This document shows positions 625-4,485 of a stretch of DNA of 4,485 nt, in pieces. The notes beneath the pieces were generated by a model. That model made no database searches. It was not told the DNA's origin and saw nothing but the letters and a program-made list of their open reading frames with translations. Numbering within the stretch: the stretch's first letter is position 1; every line of letters starts with the position of its first letter. The position numbers were made by a program, and so were the translations under genes. The stretch comes from a virus (lineage: Duplodnaviria > Heunggongvirae > Uroviricota > Caudoviricetes), in the IMG/VR virus record IMGVR_UViG_2565956603_000007. The stretch is one strand, 5' to 3'.

Positions 625-667
625 TCGCTCCCCCTCTCCTGTCTGATGTCTGAATCTGTTTATGCCC

Positions 668-699
668 AAAAAACAACAGGCACCCCGGAGGATGCCTGT
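668..699 (-). terminator. Predicted rho-independent terminator on the minus (tail-gene coding) strand, between I and J
   Basis: Minus-strand read: ACAGGCATCC-TCCG-GGGTGCCTGT (about 10-bp stem including one G-U pair, 4-nt loop) followed by TGTTTTTT. It ends about 44 nt upstream of the J GTG start. Confidence 0.55.
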
Positions 700-736
700 A
701 TCATGACTGAATAAAAATTCTGAATATCTTCACATT

Positions 737-764
737 TTCACAAACTGACTGTGGCGCGTATAAT
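737..764 (+). promoter_or_regulatory. Sigma70-like promoter on the plus strand: -35 TTCACA (737..742), 16-nt spacer, -10 TATAAT (759..764)
   Basis: Perfect consensus -10 hexamer TATAAT and a 5/6 match to TTGACA at 16-nt spacing, inside an AT-rich intergenic island. A second TTCACA copy sits 8 nt upstream (729..734). Predicted transcription start near 771. Confidence 0.45.
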
Positions 765-770
765 TTCTCT

Positions 771-868
771 GCGTTAATTTTTTTGTCGTGACATAAGAAT
801 AATTCCTTACACTTAATCTTCGTAACTCTCCCGCAGTTCCTGTCCGCGATCACTGCGGGATTTTTTTA
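771..868 (+). ncRNA. Candidate small non-coding RNA (about 95 nt) transcribed convergently to the tail genes, from predicted promoter to intrinsic terminator
   Basis: The promoter at 737..764 is followed by an approximately 95-nt segment with no ATG on the plus strand, ending in a strong intrinsic terminator (829..868). No ORF of meaningful size on either strand across 625..874. Confidence 0.3.
829..868 (+). terminator. Predicted rho-independent terminator on the plus strand
   Basis: TCCCGCAGT (829..837) pairs perfectly with ACTGCGGGA (852..860), a 9-bp GC-rich stem with a 14-nt loop, followed by TTTTTTT (861..867) then ATTCTTTTT. The T-tract is on the plus strand only, so it acts for rightward transcription. 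Confidence 0.6.
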
Positions 869-874
869 TTCTTT

Positions 875-1555
875 TTACCCCTGCCGCCCGATAACCACGA
901 CCTTTCCGCCCCCGCCTTCATCACGGGTGCTGATGTCCTGGGATATACGGCGGGAGCCAACCAGCATTTCCCCGTAAGGCACCGGCATCGGGTTCCCCTG
1001 GGCAATCATGTTATCCAGCGAGGAAAAGTACGTGTTCTGTCTGCCGTTATCCGTTGCGCGGTAATCCGGTGTTTTTGCCTTCGGGGCCAGCATCTGGGCC
1101 ACACCGCCCAGTATCATGCTGGCCCCCAGTGAAAACAGCATCGTGGTGGCAGAAAAACCGCCGGCACTCAGGGCTGTACCCCATAACGCCATCGAGGCAC
1201 CGGCAGTGAAGAAAGAGCCCACGATGGCTGCCGCCCCCAGCACAATCTGCAGTCCACCCTTTCCGGCCCCGGCCAGTCGCGGCACAATATGGATGACCGT
1301 TCCCTCACCCAGCTGTTCGTGAAGACGGGCGTACACCGCCTCCGGTGCCGTGTCATCACCGGCAATACGTATCTGGTACCAGCCTTCGTTCATCTGACGG
1401 CGAAAGCCCGGCATCTGCATCGACAGGGCGCGAATGGCTTCCGCTGCCGTGTTCACATACAGGCTGAGGCGGCGGCCAAATCGTTGTAAATCCCCGTAAA
1501 GGCGGATGCGTGCCAGTGGCGGTGACGCCAGACTGAATGCGTTCGTCGTTGCCAT
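875..1555 (-). CDS. I: Tail tip assembly protein I (gpI-like), 226 aa
   Basis: ORF-track protein MATTNAFSLASPPLARIRLYGDLQRFGRRL...; recognisable similarity to lambda gpI as I recall it (RICLYGDLQRFGRR, IHIVPR, LGAAAI.GSFFTAGA, NTYFSSLDNM.AQGN). TAA stop at 877..875. Shine-Dalgarno GGGAGAGG upstream of the ATG at 1555. Overlaps the 3' end of K by 103 nt, as in lambda. Confidence 0.92.
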   Translation of the reverse strand: MATTNAFSLASPPLARIRLYGDLQRFGRRLSLYVNTAAEAIRALSMQMPGFRRQMNEGWYQIRIAGDDTAPEAVYARLHEQLGEGTVIHIVPRLAGAGKGGLQIVLGAAAIVGSFFTAGASMALWGTALSAGGFSATTMLFSLGASMILGGVAQMLAPKAKTPDYRATDNGRQNTYFSSLDNMIAQGNPMPVPYGEMLVGSRRISQDISTRDEGGGGKVVVIGRQG

Positions 1556-2206: not shown

Positions 2207-2905
2207 TTACTGCGAAAGTTTATTAATGGAAAGGAAACCGCCAAAATTGCCGACATTCCTGCGCAGTTCACACCCGCGCATGCACTTGCTGCATCTGTCC
2301 TTACGGATATCCGTGGTGGGTTTATCGAACTCATCCGCCACAGCCCCGCCCGTGTAACCACACTCATCAGAGCGGTAGGTCCACATACAGGTGTTCGCCA
2401 GCATGATACGACCGGGAAACAGCGCCCCGTCCGTCTCGGTCGGTGTGGCCAGCACAAACGAGGCCGTCATGGCTGTCAGCTGCGACATCTGCTCCACCAC
2501 CCAGCGGTCACTCAGCTCCTGCTCCGGGTCCGCCTCCGGATTGCCCGCAACGAAATTCACCGCATCCAGAAAACGGGCATACACCCGGCGGCGGACCACC
2601 GTGGCCCCCACCAGACTCTGCAGGTCTTCTGCCATCCCGGTGACCAGACCGAACAGATTGGACACCGTCAGTGACGGGCGGGCACTGCTGCCCTTTCCGT
2701 TCATCTCAAAGTCACTGCCGTCAATCGGGTATGCCTGATACTTACGCCCCTGCCAGGTCACCGGCTCCCCTTTTTCATTCAGCTCATTACAGAAAAAATA
2801 CCGCTCACCGCCCTGTACCGTCAGGTCGATTTCCCAGAGTACCACCCGCGGTGACGGCTCTGATTTAACCGACTCGTTCAGACTTTCTTCGTGAATATCC
2901 TGCAT
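2207..2905 (-). CDS. L: Tail tip protein L (gpL-like), 232 aa
   Basis: ORF-track protein MQDIHEESLNESVKSEPSPRVVLWEIDLTVQGGERYFFCNELNEKGEPVTWQGR... ending ...NVGNFGGFLSINKLSQ, matching lambda gpL as I recall it. TAA stop at 2209..2207. Start ATG 2905..2903 overlaps the M stop by 1 nt (TGATG). Confidence 0.93.
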   Translation of the reverse strand: MQDIHEESLNESVKSEPSPRVVLWEIDLTVQGGERYFFCNELNEKGEPVTWQGRKYQAYPIDGSDFEMNGKGSSARPSLTVSNLFGLVTGMAEDLQSLVGATVVRRRVYARFLDAVNFVAGNPEADPEQELSDRWVVEQMSQLTAMTASFVLATPTETDGALFPGRIMLANTCMWTYRSDECGYTGGAVADEFDKPTTDIRKDRCSKCMRGCELRRNVGNFGGFLSINKLSQ

Positions 2906-3234
2906 CAGTTCACCACCTGCTTAAACTCCGCGCTGAACTCAACGCGCAACATCCCGACCCGCGCAGACCACCCGGCACAGGTCACCTTTATCTGCCGGTA
3001 TGCATAGGGTGGCTTCCACAAAAATGCCTTCCAGCCCCCGTGCTCTGCCAGGAACGCTTCCAGATGCCGGGCCTCCTCCCAGGTCACGGAAAGCGTCACC
3101 CTGTATGTTTTCAGGTCAGCATTCAGCCCTGCCGCCATACGCTGTGAGTACCCGTCACCAAAACGCACTTCACGCACCGATGGCTGCGAGTTCACCTCCA
3201 TATCCGGCTTCACTTTCCAGCGAAAGGTTTTCAT
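2905..3234 (-). CDS. M: Tail tip protein M (gpM-like), 109 aa
   Basis: ORF-track protein MKTFRWKVKPDMEVNSQPSVREVRFGDGYSQRMAAGLNADLKTYRVTLSV...RVGMLRVEFSAEFKQVVN, matching lambda gpM as I recall it. Start ATG overlaps the H stop as ATGA (plus 3231..3234 = tcat). Confidence 0.93.
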   Translation of the reverse strand: MKTFRWKVKPDMEVNSQPSVREVRFGDGYSQRMAAGLNADLKTYRVTLSVTWEEARHLEAFLAEHGGWKAFLWKPPYAYRQIKVTCAGWSARVGMLRVEFSAEFKQVVN

Positions 3235-4485
3235 CGACCGCTCCCTGATAACAGACCGCCATCACGCAACTGCAGCCGGAGTTCATCCTGTGCCCCCTTG
3301 CGGGCCATGTCATACACCGCCTTCATCAGCTGCGACCCCGCCTGTCCGTTGATACCGTCGTTCTGAATCACCACGTGATTGTTCTGATTAAAATTAATGC
3401 CTTCGGCCCGCCGCATCTGCGCCGGACTTCCGGCAGCACCCACATACCCCCCTTCCGCATAGCCCCGCATCAGGCGGTACAGGTTCCCGACACCAATCCG
3501 GCTGGTTGCCTCCTTCGTGAAGACAAACTCCCCGCGGTGGACAATCCCCGCTGGCTCATATTTGCCACCGGTTCCCGTAAATCCCCCGGTCGCGAAATGG
3601 AAGTTCGCCGCCGCAGCCTGAATGGCCGTCCCCGTGGAGGCAGACGCACCACCACCGAAAGCACCGCCAATGGCGCTGCCGATACGCCCGACTATCCCCA
3701 CCATCGCCTGCTTCAGAAAAATCTCTGTCAGCATGGACAGCACGGAACGGGTGAAGCTGCGCCAGTTCTGCTCACTGCCGGTCAGCATCGCCGCCATATT
3801 CTGTGCAATACCATCAAAGGTCTGCGTGGCAGCACTTTTAACCTGCGACATACTGTCCGTGGCACTCTCTTTCCACTCGCTCCAGCCGGACCTGAGGCCT
3901 GCCATCCAGTTCCCGCGAAGCAGGTCTTCAGCCGCCCAGGTCTTTTTCTGCTCTGACATGACGTTATTCAGCGCCAGCGGATTATCGCCATACTGTTCCT
4001 TCAGGCGCTGTTCTGTGGCTTCCCGTTCTGCCTGCCGGTCAGTCAGCCCCCGGCTTTTCGCATCAATGGCGGCCCGTTTTGCCCGTTGCTGCTGTGCGAA
4101 TTTATCCGCCTGCTGCGCCAGCGCGTTCAGGCGCTCCTGATACGTAACCTTGTCGCCAAGTGCAGCCAGCTGGCGTTTGTACTCCAGCGTCTCGTCTTTA
4201 TGCGCCAGCAGGGATTTCTCCTGTGCGGACAGCTGGCGACGTTGTGCCGCCTCCTCCAGTACCGCGAACTGACTTTCCGCCTTCCACAAATCCCGGCGCT
4301 GCTGGCTGATTTTCTCATTTGCTCCGGCATGCTTCTCCAACGTCCGGAGTTCAGCCTGAAGCGTCAGCAGGGCAGCATGAGCACTGTCTTCCTGACGATC
4401 GCCCGCAGACACCTTCACGCCGGACTGTTTCGGCTTTTTCAGCGTCGCTTCATAATCCTTTTTCGCCGCCGCCATCAGCGTGTTG
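3231..4485 (-). CDS. H: Tail tape measure protein H (gpH-like), C-terminal portion of at least 414 codons; 5' end lies beyond the window
   Basis: Long minus-strand ORF open to the window edge (track lists it from an internal Met at 4475). Sits immediately upstream of M with ATGA coupling, as lambda H does. Composition is typical of tape measure proteins: Ala/Gln/Arg/Glu-rich helical region followed by a Gly-rich hydrophobic segment (GSAIGGAFGGGASASTGTAIQAAAANFHFATGGFTGTGG). Confidence 0.85.
   Translation of the reverse strand, partial: NTLMAAAKKDYEATLKKPKQSGVKVSAGDRQEDSAHAALLTLQAELRTLEKHAGANEKISQQRRDLWKAESQFAVLEEAAQRRQLSAQEKSLLAHKDETLEYKRQLAALGDKVTYQERLNALAQQADKFAQQQRAKRAAIDAKSRGLTDRQAEREATEQRLKEQYGDNPLALNNVMSEQKKTWAAEDLLRGNWMAGLRSGWSEWKESATDSMSQVKSAATQTFDGIAQNMAAMLTGSEQNWRSFTRSVLSMLTEIFLKQAMVGIVGRIGSAIGGAFGGGASASTGTAIQAAAANFHFATGGFTGTGGKYEPAGIVHRGEFVFTKEATSRIGVGNLYRLMRGYAEGGYVGAAGSPAQMRRAEGINFNQNNHVVIQNDGINGQAGSQLMKAVYDMARKGAQDELRLQLRDGGLLSGSGR

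Follow-up and report, generated by a model that had tools for sequence, protein, structure and literature searches.

The segment at positions 701-867 (plus strand) of the 4,485-nucleotide stretch of phage DNA that was analyzed here (the window) is in all likelihood a divergent allele of the PasB/EcOnc22-24 family that makes an Hfq-dependent, trans-acting sRNA in the lysogen. A preliminary description of this DNA had read the promoter, short noncoding body and terminator found here as a prophage sRNA gene. The call is correct, and the unit is an uncatalogued allele of a known family. That reading is supported by PasB and the Hfq-bound EcOnc22, EcOnc23, and EcOnc24 RNAs, which lie in the same gap between the tail genes I and J, and by a covariance-model match. 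The anatomy of the unit, its full-length homology, its position and orientation, and the promoter hexamers that it shares with an expressed homologue are all observed in the window allele itself.

The flanks in the window are the lambdoid tail genes H-M-L-K-I-J, encoded on the opposite strand, with a chromosome match at 100% identity. The gap that holds the unit is bounded by the stop codon of I (875-877, minus strand) and by the GTG start of J (624, minus strand), which is preceded by a Shine-Dalgarno sequence, and the predicted sRNA (771-867) overlaps no coding sequence. The preliminary description had proposed a promoter with a 16-nt spacer, an ATG-free body, a 9-bp GC-rich hairpin followed by a 7-T tract, and an orientation convergent with the tail operon, ending 7 nt from the I stop codon. 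All of these features were confirmed base for base, at the coordinates given below.

An A/T-rich block (TCATGACTGAATAAAAATTCTGAATATCTTCACATT, 701-736, plus strand) lies directly 5′ of the −35 hexamer and marks the 5′ edge of the cassette. Positions 726-736 are the best-conserved segment of the locus (mean majority fraction of 0.96 across 45 alleles) and the block might function as an UP-element or as a binding site for a regulator. The −35 hexamer TTCACA (737-742, plus strand; conservation of 0.70 across 45 alleles) and the −10 hexamer TATAAT (759-764, plus strand; conservation of 0.86) are separated by 16 nt (743-758), score 11 out of 12 to the consensus, and constitute the sole promoter-like site that a promoter scan identified in the window. 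Other alleles carry TAnnnT-like −10 hexamers (AATAAT, TATCAT, and GATAAT). Based on the promoter position, the sRNA is predicted to start at approximately 771, giving a predicted primary transcript of 97 nt (771-867, plus strand) that consists of a conserved 5′ GCGUUA, a U-run (778-784), a variable segment (785-802), a conserved core (UUCCUUACACUUAAUCUUCG, 803-822) that is predicted to be unpaired and therefore accessible, the terminator, and a U7 tail. No ATG is present in 765-868, and the GTG and TTG starts there yield merely 2-3-codon frames. The intrinsic terminator hairpin pairs TCCCGCAGT (829-837) with ACTGCGGGA (852-860) in nine perfect base pairs, six of them G-C, around a loop of 14 nt within which the minimum free energy (MFE) fold forms two extra inner pairs. 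The U7 tail (861-867, plus strand; conservation of 0.95) is a likely Hfq proximal-face site and, with the I stop codon at 875-877, 7 nt remain between the T-tract and the stop. The MFE of 771-868 is −19.4 kcal/mol (z = −2.1 relative to shuffles), a low fold energy that is mostly due to the terminator. The preliminary description had put the transcript at ~95 nt, whereas the mature RNAs of the homologues measure ~83-85 nt. The 5′ end annotated for EPEC PasB from RNA-seq coverage corresponds to approximately window position 785-786 (83 nt vs. 97 nt), ~14 nt downstream of the promoter-predicted start, and by analogy with that annotation the mature 5′ end of the window RNA may sit near 785.

Membership in the family was assessed with a covariance model (R1) that was trained solely on alleles of the EPEC PasB group and the EHEC EcOnc22-24 group, with the window allele left out. 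The model matches 771-867 (plus strand) over its full length (model positions 1-92 of 92) with 62.9 bits and an E-value of 4.4e-11, and the next-best match scores 11.5 bits. The outer stem of the terminator is invariant in most alleles and the fold therefore receives little covariation support. The features that define the family are all found in the window unit: it is placed in the I-J gap on the strand opposite the tail operon, its 3′ end is a few nucleotides from the I stop codon, it is homologous over its full length to the detected members, and it has its own sigma-70 promoter and a Rho-independent terminator with at least six U residues. Furthermore, the window RNA carries the sequence hallmarks of Hfq binding (an accessible U/A-rich stretch in front of a terminator hairpin with its U7 tail), and we infer from the homology that the window allele is transcribed and bound by Hfq. 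The Rfam scan for known prophage sRNA families that the preliminary description had suggested came back empty: a cmscan search of the entire window on both strands (E ≤ 1, permissive filters) returned zero matches to the Rfam 15 families, including AgvB (RF02702), AsxR (RF02703), Esr41 (RF02676), STnc100 (RF02076), DicF, and IpeX. This outcome reflects the apparent absence of the family from Rfam rather than the absence of the element.

PasB (E2348CN_0006) is encoded in prophage PP6 of EPEC O127:H6 E2348/69 and is an 83-nt, northern-verified RNA that depends on Hfq (log2FC of −6.8 and −2.4 in Δhfq) and is engaged in 37 RIL-seq interactions, including ler, bfpB, bfpI, perB, ftsZ, and galE (Pearl Mizrahi et al. 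2021, PMC8550237). PasB levels are higher under non-activating conditions. The gene is located at 1466343..1466261 on the minus strand of NC_011601, where I ends at 1466255 and J starts at 1466496, and its 3′ end is the last T of a T7 tract, 6 nt from the I stop codon. PasB and the window allele share the I-J gap, the antisense orientation, identical −35 and −10 hexamers, the terminator CCCGCAG/CUGCGGG-U7, the 5′ GCGUUA, the U-run, and core motifs, and the PasB northern probe is complementary to window positions 840-862 with three mismatches. In contrast, global identity is ~75% with several indels, the core reads CUCCUUCACAUUGAUCUUCA in PasB, the stretch between the U-run and the core also diverges, and the window allele has a longer terminator loop. 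At this level of identity, and with a presumed pairing region that differs at several positions, the targets of the window allele may differ from those of PasB. The catalogued PasB variants differ by a few nucleotides and the census was conducted by word-28 BLAST (Zhu, Shabalina and Storz 2026, preprint). A megablast search with PasB at a word size of 28 yields no match to the window allele and a blastn search reaches a coverage of only 30%, plain BLAST finding the 25-nt terminator alone; the window allele is therefore outside the published catalogue of PasB variants.

The second group of homologues comes from EHEC O157:H7 Sakai, where EcOnc22, EcOnc23, and EcOnc24 were identified as Hfq-CRAC sRNA candidates and EcOnc22 gave a northern band of ~85 nt and was destabilized in Δhfq (Tree et al. 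2014, PMC4104026, Table S2). After calibration of the coordinate shift between genome versions, the three candidates were located in the I-J gaps of prophages Sp15 (Stx1), Sp14, and Sp11, respectively, each inside a homologous predicted sRNA of which the CRAC peaks cover nucleotides ~5-70. They resemble the window allele in locus, orientation, terminator outer stem, U7, 5′ GC(G/A)UUA, and the UUAAUCUUC core, but form a third allele group, in which the promoter is weaker (an AATAAT −10 and a poor −35), the body is 6 nt shorter, and the variable segment differs. A 2021 review listed their targets as unknown. PasB and EcOnc22-24 appear to be one family, a link that was not found in the PasB or EHEC papers as far as these were searched, and no further study was retrieved when the literature was searched for the terminator and core sequences. 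EcOnc54 (Sp6) was considered as a further copy and rejected, as its location is another insertion, one that separates L from K.

The cassette is kept as a whole unit in at least 120 viral contigs (at least 120 IMG/VR contigs were matched with the 701-736 block as an allele-neutral anchor) and in 1427 E. coli genomes. Strains with exactly this allele include ExPEC XM (NZ_CP025328, locus 592984-593087) and FDAARGOS_448. A total of 638 complete E. coli records carry the window allele with an identity of ≥99%, none of the E. coli matches listed carries a RefSeq/PGAP annotation at the locus, and relatives of the window allele occur in ~26% of complete E. coli genomes, with canonical PasB in ~18%. 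The window allele is among the commonest and is widespread in ExPEC and commensal-type genomes. A scan of species-representative genomes with the anchor gave two contigs of <600 bp from unrelated taxa, which are probably contaminants. A comparison of 45 alleles shows conservation of the promoter-proximal block, the 5′ GCGUUA, the core, and the terminator with its U-tail, and variation in the segment between them. The outer 7 bp of the terminator (CCCGCAG/CUGCGGG) are the same in most alleles, and divergent alleles have another stem that is still paired (CUCCCG/CGGGAG). Overall, the family is a mosaic, multi-allelic cassette that sometimes forms tandem arrays; in the array of L079, an upstream block of the 701-736 type is repeated before each cassette. 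A tentative extension, which we regard as possible rather than probable, is that the sRNA family of the I-J gap is larger and more diverse than the literature recognizes. PasB and EcOnc22-24 would then be two of at least 6-8 mosaic groups that share the promoter block, 5′ end, core, and terminator, differ in the presumed pairing region, and sometimes form arrays of up to three genes; the targets of the window allele would be a set of their own, separate from the PasB targets, and the cassette together with a terminator on the tail strand might also gate J in cis.

Positions 701-867 are best explained as a complete and self-contained “moron”, an sRNA gene cassette that sits in the enlarged I-J gap within the tail module of a lambda-like prophage. 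In a lysogen, host sigma-70 RNA polymerase would initiate at ~771 and stop at the 9-bp hairpin and U7 (829-867), releasing a noncoding RNA of ~97 nt that is possibly trimmed to ~83-85 nt like its homologues and whose orientation would be antisense to the late tail operon, which is silent in this state. A typical Hfq-binding module would be made up of the 3′ hairpin, the U-tail and the single-stranded, U/A-rich stretch before them, and the Hfq-bound RNA would pair in trans through the accessible, partly anti-Shine-Dalgarno-like core AAUUCCUUACACUUAAUCUUC with mRNAs of the host and of mobile elements, altering their translation or stability. The outcome would be lysogenic conversion at the RNA level. 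For the window allele, we infer expression, the exact 5′ end, Hfq dependence, the seed and the targets from its homologues. RNAduplex comparisons of the PasB, EHEC and window alleles with four RIL-seq partner fragments (ler, perB, ftsZ, and galE) performed no better than shuffled sRNAs; the output consisted of long unspecific duplexes (z between −1.7 and +1.3 relative to shuffled sRNAs) from which no seed was assignable.

The strict antisense placement of the unit in the late operon, which was counted against the trans reading, also fits a role in cis. The RNA would then mainly regulate the late tail transcript by antisense pairing: during lytic growth, the Q-antiterminated late mRNA that runs through the I-J gap would be fully complementary to the whole sRNA, and pairing, followed for example by RNase III cleavage, would damp or uncouple the expression of J (tail tip). 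Such an RNA could also hit the late mRNA of a related superinfecting phage, with the tail-strand terminator as part of the gate. This element, a G+C-rich hairpin (699..676, minus strand) followed by a U-tract (675..666), was identified by a terminator scan. It precedes the Shine-Dalgarno sequence of J by ~40 nt and resembles an intrinsic terminator that would separate I from J. The element is conserved among ~120 related loci, in which its stem shows a compensatory change from C-G to U-A, and there it always accompanies the cassette in an enlarged I-J gap, just upstream of J. Phage lambda lacks the cassette, gives no match to the covariance model and has an I-J gap of only 60 nt. A regulatory role in cis is consistent with these observations, as it is with the location of all family members found, which lie in the I-J gap and are always antisense to the tail genes. 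However, an antisense RNA that worked purely in cis could do without a conserved internal motif, whereas here both the core and the 5′ end are conserved and other parts vary. Furthermore, EPEC PasB was recovered in Hfq-dependent chimeras with mRNAs from unlinked loci (such as ler, bfp, perB, ftsZ, and galE), the EPEC homologue is expressed in lysogens when the late genes are off, and tandem arrays of different alleles are better explained by a diversification of trans targets. A mainly cis-acting RNA is thus considered unlikely, although roles in cis and in trans are not mutually exclusive.

A chance juxtaposition, with the hairpin serving as terminator or stabilizer of the I message and the hexamers being fortuitous A/T-rich sequence, can draw on the base rates in the window: the promoter matches alone are unremarkable, as one promoter-like site per 4.5 kb is within expectation (two registers of one site vs. 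1.3 expected), and weak terminator-like matches are numerous (13 vs. 3.8 expected). The combined layout, defined as a promoter with at least 10 out of 12 matches that is followed within 40-300 nt by a perfect hairpin of at least 7 bp and T6, was nevertheless absent from all 1000 shuffles of the window, which preserved its dinucleotides. Nor is the hairpin an intrinsic terminator for I, since the tail strand has an A-run before it and no U-run after it. The conservation of the whole cassette among viral contigs and E. coli genomes and the detection of its homologues as discrete Hfq-bound RNAs also speak against coincidence, and this very remote explanation is effectively refuted by the covariance-model match, the shuffles, and the published northern blots of homologues. 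A small protein from the tail-gene strand (the product of a 50-aa ORF with a GTG start, 853..701, that is present in the mechanical ORF list and where a few phage records annotate a hypothetical protein) is hardly credible and was rejected for lack of conservation: the longest tail-strand ORF ranges from 0 to 55 aa across 54 unique gap versions that differ in starts, frames, and sequences and contain premature stops, the indels between alleles are not multiples of three, and RefSeq/PGAP annotates no such protein among the genomes listed.

With the PasB/EcOnc22-24 assignment, a reading of the raw sequence recovers a genuine regulatory RNA gene that was missed by genome annotation, a lysogenic-conversion RNA that a large proportion of E. 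coli prophages carry and whose homologues contact the virulence regulators ler, per, and bfp in EPEC. The published word-28 census of PasB would miss whole allele groups, including that of the window. As the cassette is modular, mosaic, and occasionally present in tandem, it constitutes a natural system in which to study the diversification of sRNA seeds on mobile elements. The new points are modest and leave the basic picture of prophage-encoded Hfq sRNAs unchanged.

Among the other prophage sRNAs, HnrS (EcOnc10-12) of EHEC, and probably also PasC of EPEC, is likewise a short Hfq-associated sRNA that is present in multiple copies on lambdoid prophages, in the late region, and has a motif of the AAUCUUC type in front of an intrinsic terminator. 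It differs in being 66 nt long, in its location between the Rz/endopeptidase lysis gene and the terminase genes (Sakai) rather than between I and J, and in a 15-nt complement to the mazF 3′ end (CCCAAUCAGUACAUU), which is present in L002 and absent from the window; HnrS was rejected as the identity of the window unit on the basis of this location and the missing mazF complement. The conserved UUAAUCUUC had also prompted the idea of a seed shared with HnrS against the hha ribosome binding site, and this idea was dropped because hha-ybaJ and chpA/mazF pair with PasC, not with PasB, in the EPEC RIL-seq table. AgvB and AsxR are Hfq-binding prophage “moron” sRNAs that are convergent with phage late transcription on EHEC Stx/lambdoid prophages, but they are 51-60 nt long, are located 3′ of PR′, close to stx and the lysis genes, and act as sponges of the core sRNAs GcvB and FnrS. 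Both were rejected by position and length, as was svsR, which is located at the 3′ end of cI. DicF (Qin), IpeX (DLP12), and svsR (NC-SV prophage) are, like the window unit, prophage-encoded regulatory RNAs of E. coli, although the loci of the first two are the dicB operon and the region 3′ of nmpC, and all three are without sequence similarity to it. DicF, IpeX, and svsR act on host mRNAs, and DicF contacts ftsZ, as PasB does in RIL-seq.

The tail module of the window is lambda-like and lies on the minus strand, where it comprises the C-terminal part of the tape-measure protein H (3231-4475), M (2905-3234), L (2207-2905), K (about 1453-2196), I (875-1456/1555, stop codon 875-877) and the N-terminus of J, which begins with a GTG at 624 and continues past the left edge of the window. 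A gap of 250 nt separates I and J; the I-J gap of phage lambda is only 60 nt. Segment 640-880 of the gap is 100% identical to the chromosome of E. coli ExPEC XM (NZ_CP025328), in which the PGAP-annotated flanks encode, in order, tape measure, tail protein, minor tail protein L, C40 peptidase, tail assembly protein and gpJ, and in which PGAP annotates nothing between I and J.

The preliminary description had placed a small RNA gene, from promoter to terminator, on the plus strand of this gap, and all of its features were found. The promoter (TTCACA at 737-742, a 16-nt spacer and TATAAT at 759-764) scores 11/12 and is the sole promoter-like site within the window, 765-868 contains no ATG, and TCCCGCAGT (829-837) forms a perfect stem with ACTGCGGGA (852-860) ahead of a T7 tract (861-867) that ends 7 nt from the I stop codon. 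On the tail strand the 829-860 hairpin has an A-run before it and no U-run after it, and the terminator therefore works one way, for the plus strand. A primary transcript of 97 nt is predicted. By itself the promoter-like hit is within chance expectation for the window, but its combination with the hairpin (promoter of at least 10/12 with a perfect hairpin of at least 7 bp and T6 40-300 nt downstream) occurred in 0 out of 1000 dinucleotide-preserving shuffles. TTCACA is present twice, 8 nt apart: the copy at 729-734 is invariant across all alleles yet lies 24 nt from the -10 hexamer, and several allele groups have another sequence in place of the functional-looking -35 at 737-742. An UP-element or a protein-binding site may include the invariant copy.

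Family membership was assessed with a covariance model built from 12 unique sequences, solely of the PasB group of EPEC and the EcOnc22-24 group of EHEC. Among all window positions on both strands the model matched 771-867(+) over its full length (positions 1-92 of 92, 62.9 bits, E 4.4e-11), and the next-best score was 11.5 bits. The model recovers the Sakai, EPEC and ExPEC XM copies and finds no match in phage lambda. Position, orientation, promoter, terminator and full-length homology together assign the window element to the PasB/EcOnc22-24 family. The small RNA call was correct, for a family that is already described and experimentally supported; the Rfam scan of the window that had been proposed with it returned no match to any known family. 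Other prophage small RNAs were ruled out because they map elsewhere: 3′ of PR′ for AgvB and AsxR, the 3′ end of cI for svsR, and the interval from the lysis genes to terminase for HnrS (EcOnc10-12). In the EPEC RIL-seq data (Table S3, PMC8550237) the chimeras of PasC include chpA (=mazF) and the hha-ybaJ intergenic region, the same two targets that are reported for EHEC HnrS (PMC13502914; Sakai HnrS locus L002, 2171-2237), and since both targets are shared PasC and HnrS are probably homologues.

PasB was discovered by RIL-seq in EPEC E2348/69 and is annotated as an 83-nt RNA of prophage PP6 (NC_011601 1466343..1466261, minus strand; northern probe AATCCCGCAGTGATCGCGGAGCT) (PMC8550237). The EPEC tail genes are on the plus strand, with the end of I at 1466255 and the start of J at 1466496, which places PasB antisense to the tail genes within the I-J gap, with 6 nt between its 3′ end and the I stop. 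The EPEC locus has an identical TTCACA-N16-TATAAT promoter, and the complement of the PasB probe matches window 840-862 with 3 mismatches, a match found in none of the shuffles. PasB depends strongly on Hfq, with log2 fold changes in Δhfq of -6.8 (activating conditions) and -2.4 (non-activating conditions, in which PasB is the more abundant). It takes part in 37 RIL-seq interactions, and the activating-condition sheet lists bfpB, bfpI, ftsZ, galE, ler, perB and rplX as its partners (PMC8550237).

EcOnc22, EcOnc23 and EcOnc24 are plus-strand Hfq-CRAC peaks in Sp15, Sp14 and Sp11 of EHEC Sakai, and EcOnc22 gives a northern band of ~85 nt and is listed in the table as destabilised in Δhfq (PMC4104026). 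All three coordinates lie between J and I, on the strand opposite to that of the tail genes. The 2014 coordinates belong to an earlier version of the genome, and the shift was therefore calibrated with HnrS, located via the described mazF-complementary stretch; the two calibrators required +131 to +144, and with this shift all three peaks fall at nt ~5-70 of the 91-nt RNA that is predicted. It appears that PasB and EcOnc22-24 form a single family, although the accessible text of the PasB papers does not mention EcOnc22-24, whose targets were given as unknown in a 2021 review.

An allele-neutral anchor, the conserved A/T-rich block upstream of the promoter (701-736), retrieved at least 120 IMG/VR contigs. 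A total of 118 loci contained 45 unique promoter-to-terminator sequences that form at least 6-8 allele groups by eye, many of them clearly mosaic. Conservation (mean majority fraction per segment) is highest in the upstream block and the 5′ GCGUUA (0.96 each) and in the terminator 3′ arm with its U-tail (0.95-0.96), followed by the -10 hexamer (0.86), the core UUCCUUACACUUAAUCUUCG at 803-822 (0.84), the -35 hexamer and spacer (0.70-0.74), segment 785-802 (0.69) and the linker preceding the terminator (0.63). The predicted fold of the window RNA leaves one part of the core, UUAAUCUUC, unpaired. Divergent alleles have another terminator stem that is still paired (CUCCCG/CGGGAG). At least two cassettes are present in about 5 out of 128 fetched loci (L009, L031, L042, L054 and L079); the I-J gap of L079 (IMGVR_UViG_3300029741_000087, 8173-8790, minus) contains three in tandem, which represent three different alleles, each with its own TTCTGAAnnTCTTCACATTT-type upstream block, promoter and terminator. 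That the cassette is mosaic and sometimes arrayed is a new point. In one locus (L035, IMGVR_UViG_2534681940_000025) an IS3-family (IS629-like) element splits the promoter between -35 and -10, ~48 nt past the anchor, and presumably silences the small RNA of that prophage. Among species-representative genomes the anchor was found in two tiny contigs of unrelated taxa only, Asaia platycodi JCM 25414 (L128, 546 bp) and Parendozoicomonas haliclonae (L129, 460 bp), the latter with an EHEC-type allele (114 bits with the covariance model). Both are probably contamination of the assemblies by E. coli or phage DNA; with no sign of it in the representative genomes of other species, the element appears limited to E. 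coli-type lambdoid phages.

The evidence best supports a lysogen-expressed, Hfq-bound small RNA that acts in trans, properties shown for the homologues of EPEC and EHEC and inferred for the window allele. The self-contained gene would be transcribed by sigma-70 polymerase in the lysogen up to its own terminator, Hfq would contact the hairpin, the U-tail and the U/A-rich stretch upstream, and the RNA would act on mRNAs in trans. The conserved core, accessible and in part anti-Shine-Dalgarno-like, is the obvious candidate for the seed; when duplexes with four RIL-seq partner fragments were predicted without constraints, they scored no better than shuffled controls. Cis-antisense action on a read-through late I-J transcript is geometrically possible and agrees with the invariant placement of the cassette and with a conserved hairpin that resembles a terminator, directly upstream of J on the tail strand, but the conserved internal motifs, the trans chimeras in EPEC and the tandem arrays argue against cis as the only role, and it is unlikely to be the main function. 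This tail-strand hairpin (ACAGGCATCCTCCGGGGTGCCTGT and a U-tract, 699..666) is located inside the late operon between the small RNA promoter and the J ribosome-binding site, is conserved, with a C-G to U-A compensation in the stem, across about 120 related loci, and may stop non-antiterminated transcription ahead of J. Directly upstream of the J ribosome-binding site some loci carry 2 to 4 copies of the 7-nt unit CAGACAT (~640-655 equivalent, minus). A small protein encoded on the tail strand is excluded by an open reading frame of 0 to 55 aa with shifting starts, frames and sequences, and a chance juxtaposition of promoter and hairpin by the covariance-model match and the shuffles.

The predicted 97 nt compare with 83-85 nt in the homologues, and the coverage-based 5′ end of EPEC PasB (PMC8550237) is ~14 nt downstream of the promoter-predicted start, so the RNA may be 5′-processed or the start imprecise. 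From predicted start to end the window element shares 75% global identity with PasB, with several indels, and has no word in common with the 83-nt PasB that is longer than the 25-nt terminator. Megablast with PasB at word size 28, the setting of the 2026 PasB census (Zhu, Shabalina & Storz preprint), gave no hit in the window, and ordinary blastn covered 30% of the query, under the census threshold of 75%; the census describes its PasB variants as a few nucleotides apart. By megablast canonical PasB is present in 956 out of 5426 complete E. coli genomes. The window allele is found over 104 nt at ≥99% identity in 638 complete E. coli records and at ≥95% in about 845, with sources that include wastewater and isolates from humans, dogs, cats and ducks, and its site carries no annotation in any of the records listed. 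The window allele group is common and apparently uncatalogued. Overall, the gap DNA matches 1807 of the 5426 genomes and 149 phage records, among which Stx-converting phages are numerous, compared with the 24 phage genomes that the 2026 PasB census reports.
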